Assembly (NCBI GenBank): GCA_023134165.1
Contig: JAGLUZ010000017.1
Location: forward strand, 1 to 42,407
Direction of reading: 5' to 3'
Source of the DNA: Deltaproteobacteria bacterium
Lineage (GTDB): Bacteria; Desulfobacterota; GWC2-55-46; DRQE01
Length of the DNA: 42,407 nucleotides
Shown piece by piece: positions 6,141-27,148 of the stretch. Both the position numbers and the translations under genes were made by a program. Within the stretch, counting starts at the first letter, position 1, and each line of letters starts with the position of its first letter. The notes beneath the pieces were generated by a model. It was not told the DNA's origin. It saw only the letters and a list, made by a program, of their open reading frames with translations, and did no database searches.

Positions 6141-6165
6141 AGGGCGTACCACATGGGTACGCCCT
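6141..6165 (+). terminator. perfect 10-bp hairpin after the OMP gene
   Basis: AGGGCGTACC-acatg-GGTACGCCCT; the trailing U-tract is weak (gaaagtttctt). Confidence 0.45.
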
Positions 6166-6187
6166 GAAAGTTTCTTAACTTCCCCTG

Positions 6188-7279: not shown

Positions 7280-7336
7280 AGGTTCTTTAAAGATCATTTT
7301 TTTATCTTTTCAAAAGTAAAACCTCATAACAACTAA

Positions 7337-7489
7337 AAACCTGTCTTTTCGAGCGAACAAAGAGAGCGTGCAATCTCGTGGTCTGGGCGATTAGGTTTAA
7401 AAAAAAGGCAGATTGCCACGTAGTCCCGTCTTACGGCAGTTCTCCACACAAAGACAGGTTTCTGCGGGTTCAGGTTTGTAACCTGAACC
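7337..7489. other. nested inverted-repeat element in a convergent intergenic gap (candidate structured RNA or 3' UTR)
   Basis: 12-bp helix 7337-7348/7450-7461. Inner helix 7367-7376/7410-7420 with one bulge. Separate 10-bp hairpin 7467-7476/7480-7489. Confidence 0.3.
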
Positions 7490-7544
7490 AAACTAACTTT
7501 ACCCTCAAACAATCCTCAACTTAATTAAACTTTAGGTTCAATCG

Positions 7545-7570
7545 GTCTCTGACTGTCAGTCTCTGACTGT
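7545..7570. repeat. tandem 14-nt repeat GTCTCTGACTGT(ca/tt) x2
   Basis: Direct reading; the unit contains the small palindrome TGAC-T-GTCA. Confidence 0.6.
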
Positions 7571-7602
7571 TTGTTCTTTTTTACTTTAAACCCCTCACAA
7601 AT

Positions 7603-9237
7603 CTACTCTGAGGCAATCCTGCCAAGTACAGTATCAGAGCCAAATTCTTCGTCATCTCTCTCTGGGTGATCTATATTATAATGAAGCCCTCGGCTCTCTT
7701 CGCGTAGTATTGCAGAGCGTATTATAAGCTCTGCAATGGTTGAGATATTTCTAAGCTCGATTAAGTCCGAGGTAAGGGTAAAGTCCCAGTAATATTCATT
7801 AATCTCTTTTGATAAAAGGTCAATCCTTCGCTTTGCACGCTCTAATCTTTTATCTGACCTTACGATCCCAACATAGTTCCAGAGAAATCTCCTTATCTCG
7901 TCCCAGTTGTGAGAGATAACAACGGCCTCATCACTCGGCACAGCTCCGTAGGTCTTCCATTTTGGTATGGGAGGGGCAGGGGTTGGCCTTTCCTTTAAAA
8001 GCCTCGTAGCCTCTTTTGCCGCTCTGTCTGCAAAGACCAAACCCTCAAGGAGTGAGTTTGATGCCAGACGATTTGCACCGTGAAACCCAGTGCATGCAGT
8101 CTCACCAATTGCAAAAAGCCTCTTTATTGTGCTTGCTCCGTTTAGGTCTGTTAAGACGCCGCCGCAGGTGTAGTGAGCGGCCGGAACAACAGGGATTGGA
8201 TCCTTTGTCATATCAATTCCAAGCTCTAAACAGCGTTTATAAATATTAGGGAAACGTTCTTTAATAAATTCAGAGTCTTTATGAGATATGTCTAGGTAAA
8301 CATAGTCATCTCCACGCTTTTTTAACTCAAAATCAATTGCACGAGCAACAATATCTCTTGGTGCAAGTTCTCCATCAGGGTGATGTTTCTTCATAAATTG
8401 AGTACCATCTTTTAGCTTTAGGATTGCACCTTCGCCCCTTAGTGCCTCACTGATGAGAAAGGCCTTTGCTTGTTGATGATAAAGACACGTTGGGTGGAAT
8501 TGAAAAAACTCCATATTTGATATCTTTGCCCCGGCTCTGTATGCCATGGCAATGCCGTCTCCGGTTGCGATATCTGGGTTAGAGGTGTATTTGTATGCCT
8601 TGCCAGCACCGCCTGTTGCTAGTATTGTTGTCTTTGCAAGCATTGTCGAGACCTCGCCAGTGTCTTTATTTAGGACGTAGGCTCCCCAAACTTGCTCATC
8701 ATTATTCTCGTCATTAAGGTAGCTAGTATTTGTCTCAACAAATTTGGAGTGCGTTATAAGGTCAACTGCAATGTGACGTTCGTAGACCGTGATATTTGGC
8801 TCTGCCTCTATGGCCTTTAGGAGGGTCTCCTCTATCTCTTTGCCTGTAATATCACCTGCGTGGACAATACGCCGCTTTGAGTGACCACCTTCACGCCCTA
8901 GGTCAAACTCTAGGTGACCTTTATTTATGGTTCCACTAAAGCTAGCACCAAGATTGATTAACTCGCTAACACGCTCTGGGCCGCCCCTAACAACCATGGT
9001 TGCGACCTCAGGGTTTGAGAGACCAACACCAGCCTCTAAGGTGTCACGGATATGAGCCTCAAAGGAATCTTCCTTAGCAAAGACAGAGGCAATGCCACCC
9101 TGGGCATAGAAGGTTGCTGACTCTGAGGCCTCTCTCTTTGTGATAATTGTTACTGTTCCGCTCTTGGCTACTTTTAGGGCAAAACTAAGGCCAGCTATGC
9201 CTGAGCCAATTACAAGGTAGTCGCTTCTTATCTCCAC
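7603..9237 (-). CDS. nadB: L-aspartate oxidase
   Basis: FAD fold [12 protein letters not shown]; succinate dehydrogenase/fumarate reductase flavoprotein-like core; 544 aa. Confidence 0.92.
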
Positions 9238-9360
9238 TTAAATAAATCACCTCTTCTATTTAATACTCAAAGATTATGCTAAGAATTTTTTTTTGTCAAG
9301 AGTTGGGTGAAAAAAATAGAAAATACTTGCGATTTTAGTAATTTAGGTATAAAATCTATT

Positions 9361-9948
9361 ATGCGTTCAATTACTCGAAATTCCTTGTGGATACCTGCGT
9401 TTACATTTTTTTTCATTCTCTCTTACGCCTCTATTGCTGAGGCGGGGTATTATAAGTATCGTGACGAGAACGGACAACTTCATATAACAAATGTTCCAAC
9501 AACTGATAAATATAAATGGTTTATGGCCGAAGAGGGTGAGGAGGTTCACCGTGCTCACTCAATTGACGTCTTGATTAGAAGGGCGGCAAAAAAACATGGT
9601 GTTGACTATCCACTCGTTAAGGCCGTTATAAAGGCAGAGAGCAACTTTGAGGTTCGTGCCTTATCAAGGGCAGGTGCAAAGGGGCTTATGCAACTGATGC
9701 CTGCAACTGCAAAGATGCTCGGAGTAAAAGACATCTATGATCCATCAGAGAACGTAAACGGAGGGGTCAAGTTCCTTCGTCATTTACTTGAGAGATTTAA
9801 GTGGAAAGTACCTTTAGCACTTGCCGCCTATAATGCAGGGGAGACGGCTGTTAGAAAATACGGCACAATACCTCCTTATAAAGAAACACGTAATTACGTA
9901 AAAAAAGTTCTTATGTATCAAAATATATATAATCTGAGTTCTCACTAA
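9361..9948 (+). CDS. lytic transglycosylase (SLT domain) with DUF4124-like N-terminal segment
   Basis: Catalytic AESNF...GAKGLMQLMP...AYNAG motifs. ATG at 9361 gives an immediate signal peptide (MRSITRNSLWIPAFTFFFILSYASIAEA). The tracked GTG at 9307 is an alternative start. Confidence 0.85.
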   Translation: MRSITRNSLWIPAFTFFFILSYASIAEAGYYKYRDENGQLHITNVPTTDKYKWFMAEEGEEVHRAHSIDVLIRRAAKKHGVDYPLVKAVIKAESNFEVRALSRAGAKGLMQLMPATAKMLGVKDIYDPSENVNGGVKFLRHLLERFKWKVPLALAAYNAGETAVRKYGTIPPYKETRNYVKKVLMYQNIYNLSSH

Positions 9949-9968
9949 TTTTATTAAACTAATTAGCT

Positions 9969-10610
9969 ATGATTGGAATAAACCCAAAGGGCGGAATACG
10001 CAATAACCTTCCCAATATTCTCTCACTCATCAGAATAGGTGCAACCCCTATTCTGATATTAATGCTCCTTGACCCAGGGAAGGTCTTAAGCATTCTTGCG
10101 ACCATATTGTTTTTAGTCGTTGCACTAACTGACTGGCTAGACGGATACCTTGCCCGGAGGATGGGGCTTGTGACGCGGGTTGGAAAGTTCCTTGACCCGC
10201 TTGCTGATAAGCTACTGATAATATCAGCTCTCATAATGCTAATCTCCTTGGACAGGGCTCCTGCTTGGATGGTCACCCTAATCGTTGCTCGTGAGATAGC
10301 TGTAACAGGGCTTAGGACAATGGCCTTGGAGGCTGGAGTAGTAATCTCAGCGAGTATCGCTGGTAAGACAAAGACTGTTTTTCAGATTGCTGCAGTTGTC
10401 CCGCTTCTAATTCATTACCCCTTCTTTGGTATCGAGTTTCAGTACCTAGGGGAGGCTATTTTGTGGTTGGCCTTTATTTTAACAATCTACTCTGGTGTTG
10501 AGTATTTTATCAAGTTTAATAAACACGAGCAGGAAAAAGGAAGCTCATCGGCTGAACCAGATAGTTCAGAGTTGGGTGACGAGATAGAAGATAATGACAA
10601 CAATGATTAG
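9969..10610 (+). CDS. pgsA: CDP-diacylglycerol--glycerol-3-phosphate 3-phosphatidyltransferase
   Basis: CDP-alcohol phosphatidyltransferase motif DWLDGYLARRMG...GKFLDPLADK; multi-TM; unusual acidic C-terminal tail. Confidence 0.88.
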   Translation: MIGINPKGGIRNNLPNILSLIRIGATPILILMLLDPGKVLSILATILFLVVALTDWLDGYLARRMGLVTRVGKFLDPLADKLLIISALIMLISLDRAPAWMVTLIVAREIAVTGLRTMALEAGVVISASIAGKTKTVFQIAAVVPLLIHYPFFGIEFQYLGEAILWLAFILTIYSGVEYFIKFNKHEQEKGSSSAEPDSSELGDEIEDNDNND

Positions 10611-10612
10611 AG

Positions 10613-10641
10613 TTGAAAAAAAGGTTCTAATAAATTATTCT
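10613..10641 (+). promoter_or_regulatory. sigma70-like promoter candidate for the ankyrin array
   Basis: TTGAAA (10613-10618), 17-nt spacer, TATTCT (10636-10641), about 30 nt before the RBS of the first ANK gene. Confidence 0.35.
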
Positions 10642-10673
10642 GAGATGTTTTTCACCCTGAAGGAGTCAGTTGA

Positions 10674-12260
10674 ATGAAAAAAATATCTATGAAAGCATTT
10701 ACCCTTGGTCTTTTATTTTTGGTAGCTATTGTCTTTACAGGATGCGTTTCGACAGGAACAATCCATGACGCTGCATTTGCAGGAGATTTAGAAAAAGTCA
10801 AAGTGCATCTTGATAAAGGCGTCGATGTGAATTTAAAGACTACTAAGGGTGAGACACCCTTGGTCATTGCTACGTTTAAGGGAATGCCTCTGGTTGCAAA
10901 GGCACTCATTGATAACGGTGCAGATGTTAATGCAAAAAGCCAGTATGGTGATACCCCATTAACATGGAGCATAACTAAAGGGATGTTTCAGATTACGAAG
11001 TTGCTCATTGAGCGTGGTGCTGATGTGAACACAAAGAATAACAAAGGGACTCCCCCTTTAGTTATTGCTGTCTCTAATAAAAATTATCAGTCTTCGAAGT
11101 TACTTATTGAAAAAGGTGCTGATATAAATGCAAAGACAGTGGATAATGATACACCCTTGATCCTTGCTACGTTTAAGGAGATGCATCTGATTGCAAAAAT
11201 ACTCATAGAGAAGGGCGCAAATGTTAATGCAAAAAATAAGAGTGGTTTTACACCCTTGCTCTTTGCTGGGTCTAAGGGGATGCCGAAGGTCGCGAAGCTG
11301 CTTCTTGAGAGGGGCGCTGATGTTAATGCAAGGAGTAATGATGGCATGACCCCCTTGATGTATGCTACGTCTGAGGGGATGTCACAGACTGCGAAGTTAC
11401 TTATTGAAAACGGCGCTGATGTGAATGCAGAAAATAAATTTGGACAGACGGCCTTATTTTATTCTTTGTTCAAAAAAATGTCTCAGGTGTCAAGATTACT
11501 CATAGAGAAGGGCGCCGATGTGAATGTAAAGTCAATCAATAATGATACCCCCTTACACTTCGCGGTTTCTATGGGGTTGCCTCAGATTACAAAATTACTC
11601 ATAGAGAAGGGTGCTGATTTAAACGTAAAAAATATACATGGACAGACGGCCTTAATGAGTGCAGAAAAATTAGGCAATACTCAGATGATATCTCTCTTAA
11701 AGAAAGAGAGTGCTAAGAAGAGAAGGGTCGAGGTAGCGTTCTTAAAGAAAAAACAACCATGCTCATTAAAAGAGATGGACTGGATTTACAAAAAAGGGAA
11801 GTGTCGAAATAAACTTGCAAATGGCAAGGGCCACGCCGTTCATATTGACGGTAACCTCACCTTTGAGGGGAACTTTAAAAACGGAAAACGTACTAAGGGA
11901 GTTATATTGGCTGGAGCAACCCCCATGTATGACGGCCCTATAGTTAAAGGCAAACCAAATGGTGATGGCATTTGCTTTCATGAGGGTGAACCAGAGAGTT
12001 GTAAGTACTATAAAGGCAAACGGGTTGACGCACTCTTTAAGCAGAGGATAGAACTTACAAAACATAGAATCGAGCAACAAAAGGCCATGGATGAACAAAA
12101 CAGAAAGCTCGATGCCAAACTTAAGAAGATAAAGGCGGCCAACACATACCGTGCGCCAGTGGTAGCAGCCGGAGGCGGTAAAGGTAGTGGAGTAGGCGAC
12201 GCCATAATGGGTAAGGTTTTAGACAAAGGGTTAGACATGCTCTTTGATAAATTGTTTTAA
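10674..12260 (+). CDS. ankyrin-repeat lipoprotein A (about 10 ANK repeats plus 168-aa conserved C-terminal module)
   Basis: Signal peptide with lipobox VFTG-C. 33-aa units TPLxxAxxxGxxxxxKLLIExGADVNxK. C-terminal QPC...NTYRAP...MLFDKLF module at 11754-12257. AAGGAG RBS. Confidence 0.85.
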   Translation: MKKISMKAFTLGLLFLVAIVFTGCVSTGTIHDAAFAGDLEKVKVHLDKGVDVNLKTTKGETPLVIATFKGMPLVAKALIDNGADVNAKSQYGDTPLTWSITKGMFQITKLLIERGADVNTKNNKGTPPLVIAVSNKNYQSSKLLIEKGADINAKTVDNDTPLILATFKEMHLIAKILIEKGANVNAKNKSGFTPLLFAGSKGMPKVAKLLLERGADVNARSNDGMTPLMYATSEGMSQTAKLLIENGADVNAENKFGQTALFYSLFKKMSQVSRLLIEKGADVNVKSINNDTPLHFAVSMGLPQITKLLIEKGADLNVKNIHGQTALMSAEKLGNTQMISLLKKESAKKRRVEVAFLKKKQPCSLKEMDWIYKKGKCRNKLANGKGHAVHIDGNLTFEGNFKNGKRTKGVILAGATPMYDGPIVKGKPNGDGICFHEGEPESCKYYKGKRVDALFKQRIELTKHRIEQQKAMDEQNRKLDAKLKKIKAANTYRAPVVAAGGGKGSGVGDAIMGKVLDKGLDMLFDKLF

Positions 12261-12421
12261 GTGAAAGTTTTAACTTGTTAATTATCGTAGGTAATAACTA
12301 AAAAAAGTAGCGGAAAATTGATTTTATTTTATTCTTCTTGAGATTTTTTACTTTCTTTGAAAGATCACCAAGACTTTCTTCCAATAGGGTTTTTTTAAAG
12401 TTCTATATCCGAGGGAAGGCC

Positions 12422-13390
12422 ATGAGAATATCAATATCAAAATACCTCTTTTTCTTACAGTTCGTCCTCGTAAGTATCTTGTGTGGTTGCCAAAGCACTT
12501 CATTCCACAATGCGATAAAGACTGGAAATCCGGCTGAGATTATCACCTTTCTTGAGCTAGGCACTGATGTGGACGCTACCACAGAGTTTGGTTATACGCC
12601 CTTAACCTACAGCGTAAAACACGGCAACCTGCAAGCCGTAAATTTATTAATTGCTAAGGGAGCAGATGTAAACCTAAAGGACGATTACGGCTTCTCTCCT
12701 TTAATGTATAGTGCCAAGTATGGCTACCTCCAGATTACTGAGGCCTTAATTGTAAGCGGTGCAGATGTAAATATAAAAAATGAATCTGGTTTTACCCCCT
12801 TGCTCTACGTAGCCAAATACGGGTATTTTCAAATATTACAGGTCTTGATTGAGCAGGGTAGTAAGGTAGAAACAACTGACAACTTTGGGTATACACCGCT
12901 GATGGCATCCTCTGAGTATGGTTGTTTTCCTTGCGTTGACTTACTACTAAAGTCTGGGGCAAATGTAGATGCAAGGAATAAACCTGGTTTTACCTCTTTG
13001 ATGTTAGCCTCCCTAAGCGGAAGGGCGCACGTCATAGGGCGGCTCATTCAAGGCGGGGCAATTGTTAATGCAAAGGGCAGGTTTGGTTTTACACCACTTA
13101 CATATGCCGCAATGGGCGGACATACCTTGACTGCCTCGGTTTTACTTAAGTCAGGGGCAGATGTAAATACCAAGAATGATCATTCATATACGCCTTTAAT
13201 GTACGCAGTACTCTTTGCAGGAGATAGAGGGGATACCACTACCATAACGCTACTCCTTAATAGTGGTGCTGATCCAAGGCTTGCGAATAACTCGTGCGTT
13301 ACAGCTAAGGAGATGGCCTACGGCCTTTACAGTGAGAACATCATGAGTGCGATTAATACGGCCTGGAATAGCAAAAAAGCAGACAGATAA
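12422..13390 (+). CDS. ankyrin-repeat lipoprotein B (about 8 ANK repeats, no C-terminal module)
   Basis: ATG at 12422 gives MRISISKYLFFLQFVLVSILCG-C (lipobox) behind GAGGGAAGG. The tracked TTG at 12338 adds a non-signal extension. Ends in a YGLYS...AIN cap. Confidence 0.8.
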   Translation: MRISISKYLFFLQFVLVSILCGCQSTSFHNAIKTGNPAEIITFLELGTDVDATTEFGYTPLTYSVKHGNLQAVNLLIAKGADVNLKDDYGFSPLMYSAKYGYLQITEALIVSGADVNIKNESGFTPLLYVAKYGYFQILQVLIEQGSKVETTDNFGYTPLMASSEYGCFPCVDLLLKSGANVDARNKPGFTSLMLASLSGRAHVIGRLIQGGAIVNAKGRFGFTPLTYAAMGGHTLTASVLLKSGADVNTKNDHSYTPLMYAVLFAGDRGDTTTITLLLNSGADPRLANNSCVTAKEMAYGLYSENIMSAINTAWNSKKADR

Positions 13391-13477
13391 TTTTTTTAAA
13401 AAATTCTTAAGGTTTTAATCTTTAAAGATTTAATATTTACAAAATAAAAAAACAAAAAAAACGGAGGAAGTAGAAAA

Positions 13478-14554
13478 ATGTTTGTGAAAAAATCATTAGG
13501 ACTCTTTACAATTTTATTAATGACATTATTTTTTTCAGGTTGCACCACAATAAGTACTACAGATAATGCCGCAATGCATGGTACCAGAACTCAATTAATT
13601 AATTTATCAAATAGTGGGGTTAATCTTAAGCAAAAAAATGCTAGTGGTTATAGCCCTCTTGCATATGCCGCAATGGGAGGCAATTCAGCAACAGCAAAGT
13701 ACTTAATAGAAATCGGTGCTGACGTAAATGTTAAAAACAATGCCGGGTACACTCCTTTGATGTTTGCCGCCCTCTATGCCTCAAAAACTGGGCAAACAGG
13801 TATCATCAATACACTTCTTGATAATGGTGCAGATCCAAATTTAAGAAATAATTCAGGTAAGACAGCCGCTACCTTATCATATGGTCTTTATAGCTATACC
13901 GTAGTTAATGCAATAAATGCCGCCGCACAAAGAAAGGCACTCGCCAAGCAAAGAAAGATAGCTGAAGATAAAAGAAAGGTAGAGGCTGAAAGGCAAAGGG
14001 TTTTGGAGCAGAAGAAAAAAGATGAACTCTTGGCATTAATAAAGAAACAACCTTGTGTTCTAAAAGACATGAGCTGGATTTATATTAGCGGTGGTTGCGG
14101 AAAAAAATACGCTAATGGTGAGGGGAGTGCAATAAATATCTCACAAAATACAAGTTTTGATGGTAAATTTAAATACGGCAAGATGATCTCAGGAATTACC
14201 TACTCTGGATTAAAGAGAAATAATCGCACCTTAATCTTTGATGGTGCGCTTAGGAACGGCACACCAAATGGTGAGGGGATGTGTTTTTATAAGGGTGCGC
14301 CAGAAAAATGTGAGTACTATATGGGTAGTAGAGTAGACTTTCTCCATAAGCAAAGAGCTGAGCTTGAGTCTCAGAGGGCGGCCATGAATGAACAAAACAG
14401 AAAGATGGACGCCAAACTTAAAGAGATGCAAAAGGTCAACACATACCGCGCACCTACGCCAGTAAGCCGTGGTGGTGGCTCTGCCGCAGGTGACAAGATA
14501 ATGAATAAGGTTATTGATAAGGGTATTGGAATGCTCTTTGATCAGTTATTTTAA
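13478..14554 (+). CDS. ankyrin-repeat lipoprotein C (about 3 ANK repeats, coiled coil, 168-aa C-terminal module)
   Basis: Lipobox FFSG-C; GGAGGA RBS. The ANK units are homologous to the last units of gene B. Module at 14048-14551. Confidence 0.85.
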   Translation: MFVKKSLGLFTILLMTLFFSGCTTISTTDNAAMHGTRTQLINLSNSGVNLKQKNASGYSPLAYAAMGGNSATAKYLIEIGADVNVKNNAGYTPLMFAALYASKTGQTGIINTLLDNGADPNLRNNSGKTAATLSYGLYSYTVVNAINAAAQRKALAKQRKIAEDKRKVEAERQRVLEQKKKDELLALIKKQPCVLKDMSWIYISGGCGKKYANGEGSAINISQNTSFDGKFKYGKMISGITYSGLKRNNRTLIFDGALRNGTPNGEGMCFYKGAPEKCEYYMGSRVDFLHKQRAELESQRAAMNEQNRKMDAKLKEMQKVNTYRAPTPVSRGGGSAAGDKIMNKVIDKGIGMLFDQLF

Positions 14555-14578
14555 GTAAACAAAACACCGGAGAAAGAT

Positions 14579-16303
14579 ATGAAAAAAATATTTCCTAAGG
14601 TGGCCTTTCTTTTATTGCCGCTCATTGCTCTTGCTTTTGGAGGTTGCCAAACTATGTCACCGCTTCATAGTGCGGCAACCCAAAAGAACCTGACTCAGAT
14701 GCATGCCCTGCTTGACGGTGGTGCTGATATTAACAAAAAAGACTCCAGGGGAAATACCCCTTTGAGTTACGTCTCTATGCAAGATAATACAAGTGCCGCA
14801 ACAGTACTTATAAAGCGCGGGGCTGATGTTAATATTGGTAATAATACAAATATGACCCCTCTTATGTGGGCTACATTTAAATCAAATATAGACCTAACTA
14901 GGTTACTAATTGAAAATGGTGCTGACGTTAATGCGGCCGATAAAAATAAGTACTCAGCTCTTATGTGGACTGTTATGGGTGCAGAGCAGTCTGCAATTGG
15001 TCAAAGAGTTAGGAGTTCCCCAAAAAATGATGCTGCTAATAGAATTAAGGTACTAGAACTTTTAATTGAGAACGGAGCGAAGATTGAGGGCGCGCACCCC
15101 AATTTAAAACCCCAGAAGTATGCAAAAATGACAAAGAGAATGGATATATCCAATTTCTTAGAGGGTGCGGCACAGAGACAAAAGGTGATGAAGAATATGT
15201 TTCCTATTCATTTAGCTGCTTACAATGGGGACATTTCAAAGCTTAAGACCTTGCTCCGCAAAGGCAAGCACGTTGACTATCCTGATACAACAGGTAATAC
15301 CCCTTTAATTTGGGCAGTATCAGCGGGTCACTTAAAGACGGCTGAGTTTCTTATTAAAAACGGGGCTAAGGTAAACCACTTCGGCAAGCATAATCAGACA
15401 GCCCTAAAGACTGCGGCTCTTTATGGTCACCTGAAGATAATTGAGATGCTCGTAGCCACCAAAGGTGCAGATCTTGAATTTAAAAATGAGGCCAGTGAGA
15501 CTGCTCTCTTTGTAGCGGCAAAGGGCGGTTTTCTGGAGGTTATCTCTGTCCTCGTAAAGAAGGGTGCAAAGGTAAACACAATAAACAAAGACGGGGATAC
15601 GCCACTTATGTTTGTCGCTAGAAAGGGTGATAAGGATACCGTCATTCACCTTGCAAAGAGTGGTGCTAGTCTTATGGGTGCTAATAACAAAGGGCTTAGT
15701 GCGCTTAATATGGCAAAGTTAAATAACCATAATTCGATTGCAGAGTACCTAGATAATAGTATAAAAACCGTTGAGATTGCGGCCTTAAAGCAGAAGCAAC
15801 CCTGCATACTAAAGGATCAGAGTTGGATTTACCTAAGCGGAGATTGCCTTAAAGAACTAGCTAATGGTGAGGGCAGTGCCATAAATATCTCAGAGAATAT
15901 CAGCTATGATGGGCAATTTAAAGATGGCAATATGACTACTGGAATATCTTACTCTGGGATAAATAAAGGTAACCGCATATTTGTCTTTGACGGTCCGCTT
16001 AGGAACGGGACTCCAAATGGTGAGGGGATGTGTTTTTATAAGGGTGCGCCAGAAAAATGTGAGTACTATATGGGTGCAAGGGTGGACTTTCTTCATAAGC
16101 AAAGAGCTGAACTTGAGTCTCAGCGTCTTGCTCTTGAGGAACAAAATAGAAAGATGGACGCCAAACTTAAAGAGATACAAAAGGCCAACACGTACCGCGC
16201 TCCAACGCCAGCAAGTAGTAGTGGTGGAAGTGCAGGAGGTAGTAAGATAATGGATAAGGTTATTAATAAGGGTATTGGTATGCTCTTTGATCAGTTATTT
16301 TAG
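14579..16303 (+). CDS. ankyrin-repeat lipoprotein D (about 9-10 ANK repeats in two blocks plus 168-aa C-terminal module)
   Basis: Lipobox AFGG-C. Starts 24 nt after gene C. Module at 15797-16300, about 78 percent identical to that of gene C by hand alignment. Confidence 0.85.
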   Translation: MKKIFPKVAFLLLPLIALAFGGCQTMSPLHSAATQKNLTQMHALLDGGADINKKDSRGNTPLSYVSMQDNTSAATVLIKRGADVNIGNNTNMTPLMWATFKSNIDLTRLLIENGADVNAADKNKYSALMWTVMGAEQSAIGQRVRSSPKNDAANRIKVLELLIENGAKIEGAHPNLKPQKYAKMTKRMDISNFLEGAAQRQKVMKNMFPIHLAAYNGDISKLKTLLRKGKHVDYPDTTGNTPLIWAVSAGHLKTAEFLIKNGAKVNHFGKHNQTALKTAALYGHLKIIEMLVATKGADLEFKNEASETALFVAAKGGFLEVISVLVKKGAKVNTINKDGDTPLMFVARKGDKDTVIHLAKSGASLMGANNKGLSALNMAKLNNHNSIAEYLDNSIKTVEIAALKQKQPCILKDQSWIYLSGDCLKELANGEGSAINISENISYDGQFKDGNMTTGISYSGINKGNRIFVFDGPLRNGTPNGEGMCFYKGAPEKCEYYMGARVDFLHKQRAELESQRLALEEQNRKMDAKLKEIQKANTYRAPTPASSSGGSAGGSKIMDKVINKGIGMLFDQLF

Positions 16304-16313
16304 TGGTTTTTTA

Positions 16314-16342
16314 TTGACACCTGCTAACAAATTTGAGACTAT
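16314..16342 (+). promoter_or_regulatory. possible promoter for tRNA-Arg
   Basis: TTGACA (16314-16319), 17-nt spacer, GACTAT (16337-16342), about 30 nt before the tRNA 5' end. Confidence 0.35.
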
Positions 16343-16374
16343 ACCTTTTCAATATCAATCGTAATTTTAATTTT

Positions 16375-16451
16375 GCCCTCGTAGCTCAGCAGGATAGAGC
16401 ATCGGATTCCTAATCCGTGTGTCGGACGTTCGAGTCGTCTCGAGGGCGCCA
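16375..16451 (+). tRNA. tRNA-Arg (anticodon CCT), CCA encoded
   Basis: Hand-folded cloverleaf. Acceptor GCCCTCG/CGAGGGC. D arm GCTC-agcaggata-GAGC. Anticodon loop TTCCTAA. T arm GGACG-TTCGAGT-CGTCT. Discriminator G plus CCA. One T-T mismatch at the base of the anticodon stem. Confidence 0.9.
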
Positions 16452-16570
16452 GCTTGAAAGAGGCCGTAATCAAAAGAGTTTTTTTATTCTGGATAAACTC
16501 GATGGTTTACGGCTTCTTTTTATTTCTCTCTTTTTTCGATACATTCAACTTACCTTAAGCATTGTGAGTA

Positions 16571-16598
16571 TTGACTAATCTTCATGAAATGATATAAT
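16571..16598 (+). promoter_or_regulatory. near-consensus sigma70 promoter
   Basis: TTGACT (16571-16576), 16-nt spacer, TATAAT (16593-16598). Confidence 0.5.
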
Positions 16599-16604
16599 AT
16601 AAGA

Positions 16605-16741
16605 AATAGAGAAACAACCCCTTTGCTCAGAGCAAACTCAGGGAAACTTGAGGACGCAGAGTTACGAAGCTTAAAGAGATAAAAAAAATCTTTTTATGTT
16701 GGTCGAACCGCCAAAGATAAACATCCTTGGGCGGTTTTTTT
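16605..16741 (+). ncRNA. candidate small RNA or leader (about 135 nt) between promoter and intrinsic terminator
   Basis: Bounded by the promoter above and the terminator at 16708-16741. Contains internal hairpins, including CTCAGG-GAAA-CTTGAG with a GNRA loop. No ORF with an RBS. Confidence 0.3.
16708..16741 (+). terminator. intrinsic terminator
   Basis: CCGCCAAAG (16708-16716) pairs with CTTGGGCGG (16726-16734) with one internal mismatch, followed by T7 (16735-16741). Confidence 0.7.
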
Positions 16742-16769
16742 ATTTAATAAACCTTTAGGGGGAAAACTA

Positions 16770-17252
16770 ATGAGTATACCAATGAGAACATTCATGCCAA
16801 ATGAGCTAAATCTGGTCGAGAAGACTCTTGTAAACGGCATCATGGCCGCCAGAGATGGGCGTTATCTTGACGCACTTACAATCTTTGAAGCCAACATAAG
16901 CAGAAATGTAGATATGTCAAACAATCCTTTAGCAATGTCTTACTACGGACTTTGCATGGGGATAATCAAGAAAAAATACGCCGACGGCGCTGCAATTTGC
17001 CTAAAGGCCTTAAAGAGAAATACTCAGAGTCCAGAGGCTTATCTAAATATCTCCAAGATTCTTCTTCTTCAGGGGCAAAAAACCTTGGCAGTGAAGGCTC
17101 TAAAAAAAGGACTTTCTTTTAACAAAACCCATCCAGCTCTTTGTAAGGAAATCAGCAGGCTTGGTCTTAGAAAAAGACCTGTTCTTTCTGCACTTGGTCG
17201 TTCCAATCCAATAAATGTCTTACTCGGAAAAGTAAGGGCGGCGATAGCTTAG
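16770..17252 (+). CDS. small TPR-like repeat protein
   Basis: 160 aa, helical-repeat pattern (ALTIFEANIS..., EAYLNISKILLLQGQKTLAVKALKKGL), GGGGGA RBS. Confidence 0.45.
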   Translation: MSIPMRTFMPNELNLVEKTLVNGIMAARDGRYLDALTIFEANISRNVDMSNNPLAMSYYGLCMGIIKKKYADGAAICLKALKRNTQSPEAYLNISKILLLQGQKTLAVKALKKGLSFNKTHPALCKEISRLGLRKRPVLSALGRSNPINVLLGKVRAAIA

Positions 17253-17300
17253 ATTATCTAAAGTTTTTTTTCAATATTCAATAAAAAATCCTTGTCTTAC

Positions 17301-17330
17301 AGTGGTTTAATCAAAATAACCACTTTTTTT
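17301..17330 (+). terminator. intrinsic terminator
   Basis: AGTGGTT-taatcaaaat-AACCACT followed by T6. Confidence 0.65.
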
Positions 17331-17343
17331 ATCGCCTCGCTAT

Positions 17344-17371
17344 GTGTCGCATAATGGATATTATGTTAAAT
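17344..17371 (+). other. dif: dif chromosome-dimer resolution site (XerC arm, 6-bp spacer, XerD arm)
   Basis: GTGTCGCATAA TGGATA TTATGTTAAAT versus E. coli dif GGTGCGCATAA TGTATA TTATGTTAAAT: 24/28 identical, XerD arm 11/11. Located in the convergent gap where gene orientation flips from + to -. Confidence 0.8.
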
Positions 17372-17412
17372 TTTAGAATAAATACCAAGTTAGTGTTTAT
17401 TCTTGGTTTTAG

Positions 17413-18339
17413 CTATCCCCTTGGGTGAAATTTGTTATGAAGTTTTCGAAGTCTTTCTTTTGTGACGTGAGTATAAATCTGCGTTGCAGAAATATCAGCG
17501 TGACCAAGCATCTCTTGAACTGCTCGAAGGTCTGCTCCTCGCTCTAAAAGATGGGTTGCAAAACTGTGACGAAGAATGTGCGGCTTAACCTTGGCTCTAT
17601 TAATTTTGGCTTTGACCGCATATTTTTTTAGAATATGCCAAAAATTTTGCCTAGTCATGGACTTACCCCTTGAGGTTAAAAAAAGCTCCATTGAGTTAAC
17701 TGAACCTTGAAACGCCTCCCTGCTCTCCTCCATGTACCTGACAACCCAAACCATAGCCTCCTCTCCAAAAGGCACTATACGCTCTTTTGAGCCTTTACCG
17801 AGTGTTTTTAAGCAACCCGTCTGAAGATTCAAATCATTTAATTTAAGCGAGGTTAGCTCTGAAACCCTAAGGCCCGTAGCATACATTACCTCAATCATGG
17901 CTCTGTCACGCAGACCATTTCTGGTGGAAACATCTGGAGCGTAAATTAAATCCAAGACCTCAGCGGTGCTTAAAAATTCAGGGAGACGTTTCTCAAGTTT
18001 TGGAATCTCAATTAGGGCAGTCGGCAGAGTCGATATAAGATCTCTCTTTAAGAGGCTTCGATAAAATCCTCTAACAACAACAAGGTGTCTTGCCATGGTA
18101 CGCGTGCTGAGGCTGGTTTTTTTCAGGAAAGCGAGAAATTTTCTAATCTCATCTGGTGTGACACTGATTAGGGTTGAGCCTATTTGCGTGATAAATTTAT
18201 TAAATTTATTTAGATCTCGCTCGTAGGATTCGCAGGTATTCTTTGAAAGCCCTTTCTCAGTGATAATAGAATTAATGTACTCTACTACGAGTTGAGCCCT
18301 ATCAATTTGTTTTTTCATTCTCTTCAGCTTCACCTTCAA
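17413..18339 (-). CDS. xerD: tyrosine recombinase XerD
   Basis: Strong similarity to E. coli XerD blocks (LRDRAMIEVMYATGLRVSEL, MTRQNFWHILKKYA, HILRHSFATHLLERGADLRAVQEMLGHADISATQIYTHV, ERLRKLHNKFHPRG). Overlaps the glnD 3' end by 38 nt. Confidence 0.9.
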   Translation of the reverse strand: MKVKLKRMKKQIDRAQLVVEYINSIITEKGLSKNTCESYERDLNKFNKFITQIGSTLISVTPDEIRKFLAFLKKTSLSTRTMARHLVVVRGFYRSLLKRDLISTLPTALIEIPKLEKRLPEFLSTAEVLDLIYAPDVSTRNGLRDRAMIEVMYATGLRVSELTSLKLNDLNLQTGCLKTLGKGSKERIVPFGEEAMVWVVRYMEESREAFQGSVNSMELFLTSRGKSMTRQNFWHILKKYAVKAKINRAKVKPHILRHSFATHLLERGADLRAVQEMLGHADISATQIYTHVTKERLRKLHNKFHPRG

Positions 18340-20962
18340 TGATATTTGAAAGGCGTAACTTTAAGGAATCAAGTCGCTCTTCAAAGAAAACTTTTTGACC
18401 AAAGATATCACTGATATAAAATATGTCTGCTGCCTCGTCGCCTTTGGTTGATATCTTTGCAAGATGAATATAAAAACCCGCCTCTGTTAGAGAAGAGCTA
18501 ATGTCATAAAGCAGGCCAAGTTTATCTGGCGCGTGAATCTCTAGGACGGTGAAATCTATGGAGACTTCATTATCAATTAAGATGCGAGTTGGAACTTTTG
18601 GTTTTGGTTTATTATCAAGGATTGAAGGCTTAAGTGAGCGTACTAGTTTTTCTACCCTTACCTTTGAAGTGATTACGTCCTCTAAATCTGAGGCAACTTT
18701 TTTAATTTTTCGCTCAGATGTGACAAGTTTTCCATAAATATTTTCAACCTGGAGCACGTCAATGGTTATCCCATTTTTTAGAGTATTTATCTGCGCACCA
18801 AGAATGTTAATTGAATTTGCTGTTAGCACACCGCATATCATCGCAAAGAGACCGTGAGTATCTGAGGTACATATTACGAGTTCAGTATACCCTCGCTCTA
18901 CAACTTGTGTGGTCTCTATGACTAGAACATTATTTTTTAGTTTTGAAAAAATTCTTGTGTGTTCATAAATTTTCTCTACTTCTGTATTTAGATAATACCT
19001 AGCTGGGAGTGAATCAAAGAAATCATTTATTATTACTGGAGTAATCTCTTCCTTTAAATCTTCAAAGATATTTTTCCTTATTATTTTTACTCTCTCAGTT
19101 GTATCTTCAATATTAAAGTGTCCTCGCTCAAGAACCCCTGCGGCTTTAAAATATAATTCCTCAAATAGGGATTTTTTCCAGTCAGTCCAAACGTCTGGGC
19201 CAACGGCACGCACATCAGCAAAGGTCAGGATAAAAAGATGATCAAGATGTTTTTTAGAACCAACTTTTTTTGCAAATTCTATAATTAATTTTTCATCATG
19301 CAGGTCTCTATACTGAGCGGTATCAGCAAGGATTAAATGTTCACGTACAAGAAAGGTAACCATCTCTTCGCCTTCTTTTGAAAGTCCAAGACGCCTTGCA
19401 ATATCAGGTATAAGTTTTGACCCTCGAAGTGCATGCCCTTTTCCAAGTGCTTTACCAACGTCATGGAAAAGTACACCGAGCCTTAGCGGGGCAAGATCCT
19501 TTATAGAAGAAATTATCTCATAAAGTAGCGGGAACTCTTCACGGTATTCGCTTGCCAGTCTATCAACTTCACGAAGAGCAAAAAGTGTGTGGGCATCAAC
19601 TGTGTATACGTGATAGCGGTCATGCTGAACCTTACAGCGAATCGCCGCATACTCTGGGAGATATTTTCCAAGAAGACGAACCTCATCAATCTTTGACATT
19701 GTTCTGTAAATCTTTGGGGCTCGAAGAATTTTAAGAAACGACTCTGCACTTTTTTTTGATTCACGAAACTTGTCTGTATTACCCTCAAGCGCATTAAGGA
19801 CAAGATCCATCGTGAGATCATCTAAATCAATTTCATATTCAGTGAAAAGCGTAAAGGCCTCCATCGCAAGGAAAGGGGAATCTTCAAAAATATTTTCATC
19901 ACTCACTGATAATTTTCCCTCAGAGATTAGAAAACCACCTTCAAGTTCCTTAACTTTTCGCCCCTTCAAGGGGGTATCAACATGAAGCGTCCTACTTATT
20001 ATTAAAGCAGATAGTCGCCTTACGATATAAGCGTTTCTGTAATACTCTTGCATGAATAATTCAACGGCAAGTCCGCGTTCTGATTCTTTAAAACCAAATA
20101 AAAAAGCAATCCTTTCTTGTTCCTCAAAGGTTAATTGATCATTTTTTTTCTTACTATTAAAATGTAGTTCATTTCTAATTCTATGGAGAAAGTCAACAGC
20201 ACCTGATAGTTTTATTTGTTTTGCTTTTGAGATTATATTTGATTTCAAGGGATCTACATCTTGCCCGAACTTGAGCTTAGTTACCCAAAGAGCGAGGTGA
20301 AAATCACGTAGTCCCCCCTCGCCTTCTTTTACATTTGGCTCTAAAATATAGACAGTCCCACCGTATTTTTCGTGACGAAGAGAGTTCTCAATAAGTTTAT
20401 CCTTAATAAATTTTGCGTGTGCTTTTTTTGCAAATATTTTTTTCTCAAGAGTACTCGTAAGTTTTCTGTAAAGCTTCTCGTCTCCAGTAAGTAGACGGGT
20501 ATCAAGGAGAGCTGTCATTGTTTTAAGATCTGAGCGAGCGATACTAAGAGAGTCAGCAATATTCCTAATTGAAAAACCAACATCAAGGCCAGAGTCCCAG
20601 AGAATGTAGAGTATTTTTTTTGTAAATTCTTCAAGATCGGTCGACAATCTTCCCTCATACAAGAGCATCAAGTCTAGGTCGGAGCGAACATTTAATTTGC
20701 CCCGTCCGTAACCACCAAGGGATATTAGAGATGTTTTTTTTATACAGGAAATGTTTTTTGAAATTATAGAGTAGAGCAAGATAAGAAGATCGTCAATTGT
20801 TTTGGTATGCTTGAAGGTAATCTCTAAACCAGCCTTTGACCTAAGGTGAACTTCACGTAGCTCAGTTTCAGATTCAAATAAGTACTCTTTAACAACTGTG
20901 GTTAAAGACGTGCTTGAGTTATCAGCATTTTTTAGTGCTTTTTCTAATTCATTTTTATCCAT
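18302..20962 (-). CDS. glnD: [protein-PII] uridylyltransferase / uridylyl-removing enzyme
   Basis: 886 aa: nucleotidyltransferase (GGYGRGKLNVRSDLDL), HD domain (LFHDVGK), two C-terminal ACT-like domains. Confidence 0.9.
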   Translation of the reverse strand: MDKNELEKALKNADNSSTSLTTVVKEYLFESETELREVHLRSKAGLEITFKHTKTIDDLLILLYSIISKNISCIKKTSLISLGGYGRGKLNVRSDLDLMLLYEGRLSTDLEEFTKKILYILWDSGLDVGFSIRNIADSLSIARSDLKTMTALLDTRLLTGDEKLYRKLTSTLEKKIFAKKAHAKFIKDKLIENSLRHEKYGGTVYILEPNVKEGEGGLRDFHLALWVTKLKFGQDVDPLKSNIISKAKQIKLSGAVDFLHRIRNELHFNSKKKNDQLTFEEQERIAFLFGFKESERGLAVELFMQEYYRNAYIVRRLSALIISRTLHVDTPLKGRKVKELEGGFLISEGKLSVSDENIFEDSPFLAMEAFTLFTEYEIDLDDLTMDLVLNALEGNTDKFRESKKSAESFLKILRAPKIYRTMSKIDEVRLLGKYLPEYAAIRCKVQHDRYHVYTVDAHTLFALREVDRLASEYREEFPLLYEIISSIKDLAPLRLGVLFHDVGKALGKGHALRGSKLIPDIARRLGLSKEGEEMVTFLVREHLILADTAQYRDLHDEKLIIEFAKKVGSKKHLDHLFILTFADVRAVGPDVWTDWKKSLFEELYFKAAGVLERGHFNIEDTTERVKIIRKNIFEDLKEEITPVIINDFFDSLPARYYLNTEVEKIYEHTRIFSKLKNNVLVIETTQVVERGYTELVICTSDTHGLFAMICGVLTANSINILGAQINTLKNGITIDVLQVENIYGKLVTSERKIKKVASDLEDVITSKVRVEKLVRSLKPSILDNKPKPKVPTRILIDNEVSIDFTVLEIHAPDKLGLLYDISSSLTEAGFYIHLAKISTKGDEAADIFYISDIFGQKVFFEERLDSLKLRLSNIIEGEAEENEKTN

Positions 20963-20980
20963 AACAAGTAACTAAGAAAG

Positions 20981-22255
20981 TTACAATCCCTCACCTTTGT
21001 CGTAACTAATTATCGCCTGAGCTATGGCCTCAGCAATGTCATCAATATATTTATTTGTCCGAAGTCTTTTCTCTGACTTAGGGTTGCTGATAAAAGAGGT
21101 CTCTACAAGGACGCTTGGCATATTGGATTTAACGAGTACATAAAAAAGTGCCTCTTTAACTCCGTTGCTTTTTATCCCGGAGTATTTTTTTGAGAGCCTC
21201 TTTGCAAGTCTATCCTGAATAAGATTTGCAACTCTAATGGAACCATTACGGTTTGTTGTATTCATCATACTGCTAAGTATGCTTTGTAGGATATCGCTGC
21301 TTTTACTAATCTCTTCTATGGTAGAAAAATTTTCTCTGGCAGAGACCCGAAGCGCTTCCTTATCTTTTGCTTTTCCAAGGTAGTAGGTCTCAACCCCTGA
21401 GGCCTTTCTATTTGGACTTGCATTGACGTGGATTGAAACAAAGAGATCTGCATCCTTACTATTTGCAATTGCAGTTCTTTCATCAAGCGGGATAAAAACG
21501 TCTTTTGTTCTTGTTAAGATTATTTTTGCTTTAAGTTTTTTTGAGAGTTTTTTCTTAACTTTTTTTGCAATCTTAAGGGTTACGTCCTTCTCAAAAAGTT
21601 TGCGTTTTCCTACAGCACCAGGATCCTTACCACCGTGCCCTGGGTCTAAGACAATTATATTTAAACCACTTGAAGAGGATTTTATAGCTTTTGCTTTTTG
21701 ATCAATTATTTTTTTAGCTTTTTCTTTTTTTTCTTTTACCTTTTCTGGAGTTTTTATTTCAACCTTTGAAGTGGAGGTTTTCTTGCCAGTCCCTGTAACG
21801 TCAATAACAATTCTAAATGGGTTTGTTAGAGGAAATACTGTAAAATCCTCAAGAGTTTCAATATCGAGAACAACACGAACAGTACTTGTATCAAATTGTC
21901 CAGTACGAATATTCTTTAGTAAACCGTCATTTACAGGGATTGCCCTTGAGACCCCCTCACCGATAAACGCACCTTTGATATCAACATAAAGGCGACGAGG
22001 TTTATTCATTGAGGTGTCTTTATTTAAAAGTTTGTATTTAAATTCTGCTTTTTCTTTAAGGTCTAAAACAACGCGAGTGTAATTTGGCCCAGAACGATGC
22101 CTTATATCTTTAAGCTCAATTTTCCCACTTTTTCCGTCAACAATGCTTGCCGGAGTTATAAAGAACCCTGCAATTACTAGAAGGACTACACGAAAGATAA
22201 GAGAATTTAGAAAAGTTCTTTTTGTGGTAATAATATCAAGAAGAGAAGTAAACAA
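20981..22255 (-). CDS. N-acetylmuramoyl-L-alanine amidase with N-terminal AMIN domain (AmiC-like)
   Basis: AMIN-like (YTRVVLDL...RVVLDI), Lys-rich linker, Amidase_3 motifs (VLDPGHGGKDPGA, SIHVNA, ETSFISN). Confidence 0.88.
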   Translation of the reverse strand: MFTSLLDIITTKRTFLNSLIFRVVLLVIAGFFITPASIVDGKSGKIELKDIRHRSGPNYTRVVLDLKEKAEFKYKLLNKDTSMNKPRRLYVDIKGAFIGEGVSRAIPVNDGLLKNIRTGQFDTSTVRVVLDIETLEDFTVFPLTNPFRIVIDVTGTGKKTSTSKVEIKTPEKVKEKKEKAKKIIDQKAKAIKSSSSGLNIIVLDPGHGGKDPGAVGKRKLFEKDVTLKIAKKVKKKLSKKLKAKIILTRTKDVFIPLDERTAIANSKDADLFVSIHVNASPNRKASGVETYYLGKAKDKEALRVSARENFSTIEEISKSSDILQSILSSMMNTTNRNGSIRVANLIQDRLAKRLSKKYSGIKSNGVKEALFYVLVKSNMPSVLVETSFISNPKSEKRLRTNKYIDDIAEAIAQAIISYDKGEGL

Positions 22256-22256
22256 T

Positions 22257-24890
22257 TTATAGTTCCTCTGAAAGTTTTTTTATTTTATTTAAAACCATTA
22301 GTGCTTCTATCGGTGTCATTTCGTCTGGGTTAATATTTTTAAGTTCTTTACGTAGTGGCTCAAGTTTTTCTAAATTTTCAGAGCCACCTCCAAGCAGATG
22401 TGGCAAATTCAATTGAGGTGTTTTATCACCAACTCCAGATTTGTGTTTGGCTAATACCGGCTCCCCTGTTGCAGAGAACTCACCGTCCTCTAGATTCTTA
22501 AGTATCTCATCAGCACGGTTAATTACAGGATCGGGGATTCCAGCTAGTTTTGCAACTTGAATTCCGTAGCTCCTGCTTGCTCCACCGGGAGCAACTTTTC
22601 TAAGAAAGTGGACTTTCCCATCCCACTCTTTGACCATCATATTATAGTTTTTGACTCCTGTCTTTGTCAAGGTTATGTCAGTTAATTCGTGGTAATGAGT
22701 TGCAAAAAGGGTTCTAGAGCGAAGCCTCGCACTGTCGTGAATGAATTCAGTTACAGCCCAAGCAATGCTTAGGCCGTCAAAGGTCGAGGTGCCGCGACCA
22801 ATCTCATCAAGAATAAGAAGGCTTCTCTCTGTTGCATTATTTAAAATATTAGCGGTCTCATTCATCTCAACCATAAAAGTACTCTGCCCTTTTGATATAT
22901 CATCTGAGGCACCAACGCGAGAGAATATTCTATCGACTACTCCGATGGTTGCATTTTTTGCAGGAACAAAAGAACCTATCTGAGCCATGAGAACGATTAG
23001 TGCGGCCTGGCGAATGAAGGTGGATTTTCCAGCCATATTCGGGCCAGTTAAAATAATTATAAGGTGATCTTTTTTATCTAAGGTAATATCGTTTGGAACA
23101 AACTCGTCCTCAATAGTGCTTTCAATTACTGGGTGACGCCCTTCAATAATATTTATTGACTCGCCGTCATTAACAATTGGCTTGACGTATCCTCGCCCCT
23201 CACTGACAGTGGCTAGAGATATCAGCACATCAAGGAGAGCGATAGACCTTGCTGTCATTTGTACGCGTTCAATATAGAGAAGTGCATCCTCACGAAGACG
23301 CGAAAAAATCTCTGCTTCAAGTGCCTTTGACTTTTCTTCTGCACCAAGAATTTTTGTCTCCCATTCCTTTAGCTCAGGGGTTATAAATCTTTCAGAATTA
23401 ACGAGCGTTTGTTTTCCAATATAGTGCATCGGGACTTTTGAGCAGTGCGCTTTTGTAACCTCTATATAAAAACCAAAGACTCTATTGAAGCCAACCTTAA
23501 GAGAATTTATTCCTGTCTCCTCACGTTCTTTGGTCTCCAAGCGTGCGATAAATTCCTTTCCTCCGTCACCGATATCTCTAAGCTCATCGAGTGCAGGAGA
23601 AAAACCCTCACGAATAAAACCACCGTCCCTGATATGTATTGGTGCTGAGTCCTTTAAAGTACTTTCAATTAAAGAGGTTAGATCCTCTAGCGGGTCAAGC
23701 ACATCAGTTTCGTCTTTAATAAGTTTGGAGGAAAAAAGAGAGGCACTTTGAATTAAATTTGGAATATTTTTTAGTGAATTTTTAAGCGAGATCATATCAC
23801 GAGGCATAGCTGAGCCTATGGCAACCCTGCTTATGAGTCTCTCAAGATCGTAAATATCTGAGAGAATTACAGAGGTCTTCAAACGCTCCTCTCTTTTATC
23901 GATGAACTCTTCAACGGATTGAAGGCGAAGATTAATCTCACTACTAATAATTAAAGGACGATTTACCCAAGTAGTAAGAAGTCTTGTTCCCATTGGAGTT
24001 TTTGTGCGGTCAAGAAGATCAAGGAGTGTCCCCTCCTTTGTAAGTGTTCGTGCGTTTTGAATTAATTCAAGATTTTTTTGAGTAGAACTATCAAGAACCA
24101 TATGATCGTCAGGATGATAAGGGATGCACTTCGTGATGTGCTTTAAATCCGCTCTATTTGTCTCTGTAATATAGCGAAGGATTGCACCAGCGGCCTTAAC
24201 TCCTGCATTAGAATCACCACAACCGAAACCATCAAGTGAGTTTATTCCAAAATGCGTTTTTAAAAAATCTTCAGATCTTGAAAAATCAAAATCAAAAGAA
24301 GGGAGTACTGTAATATTTTTTTTATTTATTCCAATATTAAAAAGGCTAGGTATTTTTTTCTCATCCTCGTCACTTAATAAAAGTTCAGAAGGCCTAATGG
24401 TTTTTATCTCATTTAAGGTTGCCTCTTCACTATCAAGTTCTGTTAATTTAAACTCACCAGTTGATACGTCCATGTATGCAAAGCCGCATTTTTTTTTATC
24501 CCAAATCACAGCACCAATAAAATTATTATCAGTTGATGATAGGAATTCGTCTTCAGTTAGGTTGCCTAGAGTGATAATCTTTGCAACCTCCCTTTGGATA
24601 AGTGCTGTTGGATTTGTTGAGTCCTTAATCTGCTCACAGAGAGCAACTTTGTATCCAGCATTAACTAGTTTTGAAATATAATTAGTTGCGGCGTGAAAAG
24701 GAATTCCACACATTGGAATTTTTTTTGCTTTATCCCTAGATGTAAGAGCAATATTTAAAATCCTTGAAGAGAGCTTGGCGTCTTCAAAGAACATCTCATA
24801 GAAATCACCCATTCGAAAAAATACAATAGCATCCTTATGACGCTCTTTTATCTCTAGGTACTGTCTCATTGCTGGTGTTAAGTTACTCAT
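22257..24890 (-). CDS. mutS: DNA mismatch repair protein MutS
   Basis: N-terminal TPAMRQYLEIK...FFRMGDFYEMFF, Walker A GPNMAGKST, DEIGRGTST, 877 aa. Confidence 0.97.
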   Translation of the reverse strand: MSNLTPAMRQYLEIKERHKDAIVFFRMGDFYEMFFEDAKLSSRILNIALTSRDKAKKIPMCGIPFHAATNYISKLVNAGYKVALCEQIKDSTNPTALIQREVAKIITLGNLTEDEFLSSTDNNFIGAVIWDKKKCGFAYMDVSTGEFKLTELDSEEATLNEIKTIRPSELLLSDEDEKKIPSLFNIGINKKNITVLPSFDFDFSRSEDFLKTHFGINSLDGFGCGDSNAGVKAAGAILRYITETNRADLKHITKCIPYHPDDHMVLDSSTQKNLELIQNARTLTKEGTLLDLLDRTKTPMGTRLLTTWVNRPLIISSEINLRLQSVEEFIDKREERLKTSVILSDIYDLERLISRVAIGSAMPRDMISLKNSLKNIPNLIQSASLFSSKLIKDETDVLDPLEDLTSLIESTLKDSAPIHIRDGGFIREGFSPALDELRDIGDGGKEFIARLETKEREETGINSLKVGFNRVFGFYIEVTKAHCSKVPMHYIGKQTLVNSERFITPELKEWETKILGAEEKSKALEAEIFSRLREDALLYIERVQMTARSIALLDVLISLATVSEGRGYVKPIVNDGESINIIEGRHPVIESTIEDEFVPNDITLDKKDHLIIILTGPNMAGKSTFIRQAALIVLMAQIGSFVPAKNATIGVVDRIFSRVGASDDISKGQSTFMVEMNETANILNNATERSLLILDEIGRGTSTFDGLSIAWAVTEFIHDSARLRSRTLFATHYHELTDITLTKTGVKNYNMMVKEWDGKVHFLRKVAPGGASRSYGIQVAKLAGIPDPVINRADEILKNLEDGEFSATGEPVLAKHKSGVGDKTPQLNLPHLLGGGSENLEKLEPLRKELKNINPDEMTPIEALMVLNKIKKLSEEL

Positions 24891-24898
24891 ATTTTTTT

Positions 24899-27133: not shown

Positions 27134-27148
27134 TTTTCAAACTTAAAA

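Follow-up and report, generated by a model that had tools for sequence, protein, structure and literature searches.

Among the described systems for chromosome dimer resolution, the closest to the locus considered here is the XerCD-dif-FtsK system of E. coli and other proteobacteria, whose site is a 28-bp sequence of 11-6-11 layout that is low in G+C, intergenic, present in a single copy and located at the GC-skew switch, and which relies on two recombinases and an FtsK gamma domain (PMC2731167, PMC3025954, PMC5357621). The recombinase genes of such classical XerCD systems are scattered over the chromosome (PMC2731167). Reviews treat linkage between recombinase gene and site as a trait, possibly a hallmark, of the single-recombinase systems, namely XerS/difSL of streptococci and lactococci and XerH/difH of Helicobacter and Campylobacter, in which the two are found together at the terminus. 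The CodV/RipX-dif system of B. subtilis, which also features two recombinases, has a XerD arm of the TTATGTAAACT type, as do many relatives of our organism within its phylum. B. subtilis ripX is not known to be adjacent to dif, and its xerC (codV) adjoins hslV (clpQ), an arrangement that we also encountered here (see below).

The window is a stretch of 42,407 nt that constitutes the entire contig C79 of a MAG (hereafter G000; 1.596 Mb in 169 contigs, 84% complete) from the South China Sea Site-F cold-seep metagenome (SAMN18200499; PMC9357000); its host belongs to an uncultured cold-seep lineage, in contrast to those of the E. coli/proteobacterial XerCD systems. The + strand reads GTGTCGCATAATGGATATTATGTTAAAT at 17344-17371, and we consider this, with a probability of about 0.9, to be the single dif site of the chromosome, at which the two replichores meet. 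It is an ordinary dif, an expected housekeeping feature, apart from its linkage to xerD (see below). Relative to E. coli dif (GGTGCGCATAATGTATATTATGTTAAAT, found verbatim as such in publications, e.g., Kono et al. 2011, PMC3025954), it is identical at 24/28 positions, with 8/11 in the XerC arm, 5/6 in the spacer and 11/11 in the XerD arm, which reproduces both the near-consensus match and the arm-by-arm counts reported in the earlier note. Hence, it shares with the E. coli site the 28-bp 11-6-11 layout, the XerD arm and the inner part of the XerC arm, and differs in the outer nucleotides of the XerC arm and one spacer base (Table 1). The arms are symmetric at 7/11 positions, with the inner CATAA/TTATG retained, and the 6-bp central region is of the chromosomal type, which works without the need for accessory factors (PMC2731167). 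As in E. coli, the site is poor in G+C (29% versus 42% for the genome) and intergenic, being placed between the convergent 160-aa TPR-like gene and xerD, which are 160 bp apart.

Table 1. Features at and around the predicted dif site, in coordinates of the window.
Feature	Position	Strand	Basis or remark
Probable end of one replichore	1..17343	+	15/16 ORFs on +; G over C on +
TPR-like ORF, 160 aa, last gene of left arm	16770..17252	+	weak TPR matches, all below Pfam cut-offs
Terminator-like hairpin and T7 run ending the TPR gene	17301..17330	+	-7.3 kcal/mol, z = -2.3
dif, predicted 28-bp XerC/XerD chromosome dimer resolution site	17344..17371	+	E. coli likeness, uniqueness, conservation in the order
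Predicted XerC-binding arm, GTGTCGCATAA	17344..17354	+	inner CGCATAA as in E. coli; outer 3-4 nt differ
6-bp central region, TGGATA	17355..17360	+	TGTATA in E. coli; most genomes of the order have TGGATA
Predicted XerD-binding arm, TTATGTTAAAT	17361..17371	+	11/11 as in E. coli; order consensus TTATGTCAAAT
Probable end of other replichore	17372..42407	-	16/16 ORFs on -; C over G on +
AT-rich inverted repeat, between dif and xerD stop codon	~17375..17403		folding energy
xerD	17413..18339	-	stop codon 41 nt from dif, 3′ end toward XerD arm

A Hamming scan against E. coli dif over all 169 contigs, on both strands, recovered this site with four mismatches as the sole match of its kind in the 84%-complete assembly. 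The same scan found no site with 5-8 mismatches; the next best are ten sites at 9 mismatches, for which chance alone predicts about 19. Thus, the closer match elsewhere that the earlier note had wished to see excluded did not turn up in this assembly, the runner-up being at 9 mismatches, though the missing 16% of the genome might harbor a second or better site. Given the base frequencies of the genome itself, a match at ≥24/28 positions has a probability of 9.2e-11 per position, which amounts to a chance expectation of 2.9e-4 per assembly and 7.8e-6 per window. The notion that the site is merely a fortuitous resemblance in AT-rich intergenic DNA, devoid of function, can draw on the AT-richness of the region and nothing more, and it is set against that expectation of 2.9e-4 per genome, the gap of five mismatches to the next best site and the near-complete conservation of the site in 35 genomes amidst random flanks. 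We hence take a chance origin to be effectively refuted by the expectation, the mismatch gap and the order-wide conservation, and accord it practically no probability.

This conservation emerged from a search of 41 genomes of the order, including that of the window, with the inner 24 nt of dif and ≤3 mismatches permitted. Sites were obtained in 36/41 genomes, in a single copy in 35 and in two copies in one (G020), while a reversed-pattern control over the genomes of the order gave one match in total. An alignment of 35 of these sites with 30-nt flanks yields the consensus aTGTCGCATAA-TGGATA-TTATGTCAAAT, with an information content per position of 1.82 bits in the XerC arm, 1.60 bits in the spacer and 1.82 bits in the XerD arm, as against 0.11 and 0.12 bits in the flanks. 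Positions 2-4 (TGT) of the 28-mer, which lie outside the search pattern, are invariant in 35/35 aligned sites. With the full order-specific consensus, ATGTCGCATAATGGATATTATGTCAAAT, dif can be annotated in relatives, scaffolds can be oriented and Xer-exploiting elements can be sought.

Two members of the order display additional dif-related sequences. The copies in G020 (C182:482-505 and C190:3591-3614; loci L203 and L204) are both on short contigs; the first base of the 28-mer is not the same in the two, and xerD adjoins only one of them. They could reflect strain heterogeneity in that MAG or an integrated Xer-exploiting element. At a further locus (L197, G032:C26), a 16-nt inverted dif core, ATAATATCCATTATGC, which corresponds to dif positions 6-21 in reverse complement, is found about 20 nt upstream of dif, abutting the XerC arm.

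Another interpretation of the site in the window is that it serves a Xer-exploiting integrative element (IMEX) for attachment or as a hybrid site, or is a plasmid-type (cer-like) resolution site, rather than the chromosomal dif. Such elements are frequently found in terminus regions (PMC2731167, PMC5357621), and the flank bearing the ankyrin array and tRNA-Arg varies between relatives. Nevertheless, the window shows no second site with ≥12/13 core matches and credible arms, and no pair of half-sites; just two further words in it resemble a XerD arm, one at 27271 within a gene and one at 34655, a number in line with chance. Furthermore, the site has a 6-bp spacer and no conserved accessory sequence, its neighbors are housekeeping genes (glnD, amiC, mutS, pgsA), and it occupies the same locus across the order (36/41 genomes, once in 35). 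We accordingly judge a mobile-element or plasmid-type site to be very improbable and retain the chromosomal dif. In the same vein, the suggestion of the earlier note that the ankyrin array and tRNA-Arg represent accessory or Xer-exploiting DNA found no support, there being no second dif-like site in the window. In addition, the TPR-like gene adjoining dif recurs beside dif in four relatives from two families (G005, G010, G017 and G024); since its homologues are thus positioned, we regard this left neighbor as partly conserved and not accessory. A paralogue of its product with 33% identity is encoded on contig C114. As for the words noted above, the one at 34655-34682 is an intergenic TTATAATATGACACATGTTATGTCAATT, with an XerD-arm-like half that agrees with the order consensus at 10/11 positions and lacks a credible XerC arm. 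A cluster of XerD-arm half-sites (XDS) in the style of B. subtilis was not seen in the window.

The site coincides with a switch in gene orientation, as the earlier note had claimed; our recount of the ORFs on its two sides returned the same figures (Table 1). The predicted change of sign in GC skew near 17.3 kb is likewise present: in 2-kb windows, the first 17 kb or so have a positive skew and the remainder a negative one, and the cumulative G-C curve attains its maximum at 17,582. For a per-contig comparison, we recorded the rise of this curve above its end points in the 123 contigs of ≥5 kb, among which C79 has the largest internal maximum, with 659 as opposed to 191 for the next contig. 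The orientation and skew switches are not two independent signals, for the skew flip at 17.3 kb mostly restates the gene-strand flip. Across G000, 85% of the long-ORF length belongs to the strand that is in the majority on the respective contig. The sense-strand skew is +0.10 for majority-strand versus +0.05 for minority-strand ORFs, with corresponding third-position values of -0.015 and -0.097. The skew of this genome therefore stems in large part from the coding strand and to a smaller extent from the strand of replication. Within the window, 31/32 ORFs run with the presumed direction of replication. The largest internal minima of cumulative skew are at about 7061 on G000:C154 (excursion of 191) and about 2366 on G000:C68 (151), and these could mark the origin region.

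These data bear on a further possibility, that the dif is functional but that the strand switch is a local convergence of operons, with dif displaced from the true terminus. It is favored by the limited context (42 kb in all, with a left arm of 17 kb), by the absence of dnaA from the 84%-complete assembly of 169 contigs and by the dominance of coding-strand composition in the local skew. However, C79 stands alone among the 123 contigs of ≥5 kb in having a large internal skew maximum, and strand switches are rare in this genome, as 85% of the ORF length is on one strand per contig. Moreover, in two essentially closed relatives, which we used to obtain the distance between dif and dnaA, the orthologous xerD-dif locus is 47-49% of the chromosome away from dnaA. 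In G029 (2,751,635 bp), dnaA is at 26,360 and dif at 1,377,183, i.e., 49% of the circle from dnaA, and in G039 (2,590,723 bp) they are at 1,536,173 and 310,150, respectively, i.e., 47% of the circle apart. A dif lying off the terminus thus appears improbable. The assignment of the site in G000 to the terminus rests on this position in the relatives together with the unique skew maximum of C79. Taken as a whole, the terminus and dif interpretation advanced in the earlier note is upheld by the architecture of the site, its uniqueness in the assembly, its intergenic placement and low G+C, the strand and skew switch, the presence of genes for XerD, XerC and FtsK-gamma and the conservation across the order. 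The site thereby provides a fixed terminus landmark for the fragmented genome of an uncultured autotrophic lineage.

The essentially closed relative G029 also allowed an inspection of sequence polarity around dif. Its skew, sampled in 20-kb windows, is positive from 20 kb to about 1.25 Mb, followed by a noisy plateau of cumulative skew between 1.25 and 1.377 Mb that has no sharp peak; between 1.377 and 2.08 Mb, all sampled windows are negative, and those from there up to the end of the record are close to zero or weakly negative. The octamer GGGNAGGG is found in the 200 kb to the left of dif in 49 copies on the + and 18 on the - strand, and in the 200 kb to the right in 9 and 60 copies, respectively; in the nearest 50 kb, the counts are 15 and 2 to the left and 3 and 17 to the right. 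Its polarity in G029 places this motif second among 56 of matching composition, and of the best-ranked ones listed, it is the most frequent. The flip at dif is suggestive of a KOPS-like polarity, though it is not specific. The window itself has four copies only, and genome-wide in G000 the motif ranks 17th of the 56, with a polarity like that of the controls. Skewed octamers learnt from the other contigs of G000 brought forth no KOPS candidate; the top ones are confounded by the coding strand (e.g., the anti-Shine-Dalgarno ACCTCCTT).

The protein encoded next to the site is a canonical XerD. It scores 369.9 bits on the XerD equivalog model TIGR02225 (cut-off 329.6), can be aligned over its full length to 1A0P, the structure of E. 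coli XerD, and also matches the XerD-FtsK-gamma fusion 5DCF. Inspection of catalytic residues, which covered XerD, showed that R, K, H, R, H and Y are all kept, with the motifs ATGLRVSEL, GKGSKER, HILRHSF, LGH and IYTH. A second Xer gene on contig C72 scores best as XerC, with 305 bits on TIGR02224, which is below the cut-off of 335, and its product passes the Xer subfamily model NF001399 (285 versus a cut-off of 279). It is directly upstream of hslV, in a segment (L082, G000:C72:749-4687) whose gene order we take to be lepA (3′ end)-lepB-xerC-hslV, with lepA and lepB named from the translated ORFs; the xerC-hslV pair is reminiscent of codV-clpQ of Bacillus. The gamma domain of FtsK (PF09397, 85.8 bits, cut-off 30.6) was detected in a 758-aa open frame on C101. 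G000 has two Xer genes, and most genomes of the order have exactly two.

Given the linkage of xerD to the site, we also considered a single-recombinase module of the XerS/difSL or XerH/difH kind and rejected it: there are two Xer genes, the spacer is 6 bp long and the linked protein is of the XerD type. The latter scores only 114 bits on the XerS model as opposed to 369.9 as XerD, and the XerH structure 5JJV is matched with E = 8.6e-22 only. The likeness to these modules lies in the proximity of recombinase gene and site at the terminus. In contrast to them, the system described here pairs a canonical XerD with a XerC-type paralogue encoded elsewhere, its site has the canonical 28 bp, including a spacer of 6 bp, in place of the 31-bp difSL, and its linked gene is convergent, with the 3′ end toward the site.

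By analogy with E. coli, we infer the binding, order of cleavage and FtsK dependence at this site as follows. An odd number of crossovers between sister chromosomes after replication would produce a chromosome dimer, according to the E. coli paradigm. XerC, from C72, would bind the left arm, GTGTCGCATAA, and XerD, encoded 41 nt away, the right arm, TTATGTTAAAT, and two dif sites would be brought into synapsis at the septum. FtsK, with the gamma domain found on C101, would translocate toward dif and activate XerD for the first strand exchange across TGGATA, after which XerC would resolve the resulting Holliday junction.

The feature by which the locus departs from the classical XerCD systems, with their scattered recombinase genes, is that xerD adjoins dif throughout much of the order. 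In the window, the interval of about 40 bp given in the earlier note measures 41 nt from the xerD stop codon to dif. Of the 34 order genomes in which the linkage could be evaluated, 28 have xerD within 200 nt of dif, with gaps of 21-177 nt, and in four more (G030, G024, G021 and G028) the gap is 0.6-3 kb, such that the two are within 3 kb of each other in 32/34. The unlinked ones are G018 and G026, with xerD 51 kb away in the latter. Wherever it is linked, xerD has the same orientation, with its 3′ end toward the XerD arm. The block to the right of dif, xerD-glnD-amiC-mutS, is also kept in relatives, with glnD coming after xerD in 29/37 loci, whereas the sequence between xerD and dif is unconserved where the gap is <200 nt. 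xerC is located elsewhere in the genomes of the order (e.g., 261 kb from dif in G029). Beyond the order, no xerD homologue was found within 2.5 kb of dif at any of 40 sites from 38 families in other orders of the phylum. As a negative control, we searched 80 loci with 3-kb flanks from other phyla, which encode XerD relatives in named genomes and are distant (about 50% identity), and obtained one chance-like core match. The placement of xerD immediately next to the XerD arm, with transcription heading for dif, predates the divergence of the families within the order.

A search of the literature by phrase returned no report of a chromosomal dif beside xerD in lineages with XerCD, which is no proof of absence. 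With this proviso, the order-wide linkage is a modestly new comparative result, indicating that the association of recombinase gene and site is not confined to single-recombinase systems. A tentative proposal, which we think more apt to be wrong than right by a wide measure, is that xerD and dif form a selected cis-module within a canonical two-recombinase XerCD system, wherein selection would hold xerD at the very end of one replichore, as its last gene, with transcription toward the XerD arm. Possible reasons for such selection are the production of XerD beside its site, a dosage or timing tied to the completion of replication or a modulation of dif by read-through. Alternatively, the linkage may stem from an ancestral rearrangement that became frozen on a slowly changing flank. 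The variable gap between xerD and dif, together with the two cases of loss, speaks against linkage being strictly required. The linked genomes and the unlinked G018 and G026 offer a natural comparison as to whether the proximity of the recombinase gene to its site matters.

Two potential secondary structures flank the site (Table 1). The hairpin on its left has the stem GUGGUU...AACCAC followed by UUUUUUU, and ends 13 nt before dif. The inverted repeat on its right folds with -7.6 kcal/mol in the sense of xerD (z = -3.3) and with -9.2 kcal/mol on the + strand (z = -2.6), and is possibly a weak bidirectional terminator; among the 35 aligned sites of the order, it is not kept in the relatives.

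The junction is also represented in other assemblies. An exact look-up of the 308-aa form of XerD gave no match, while its 301-aa form was matched. Two further assemblies of this sample, represented by a 125-kb ENA scaffold and a 14.5-kb Logan contig, code for this XerD protein as well. Both contain dif and are identical to the window over 17001-17700, a stretch of 700 nt across the junction. In NCBI, the XerD proteins of the order members G036 and G005 are labeled as coming from a 'Thermodesulfobacteriota bacterium' and a 'Deltaproteobacteria bacterium', respectively.
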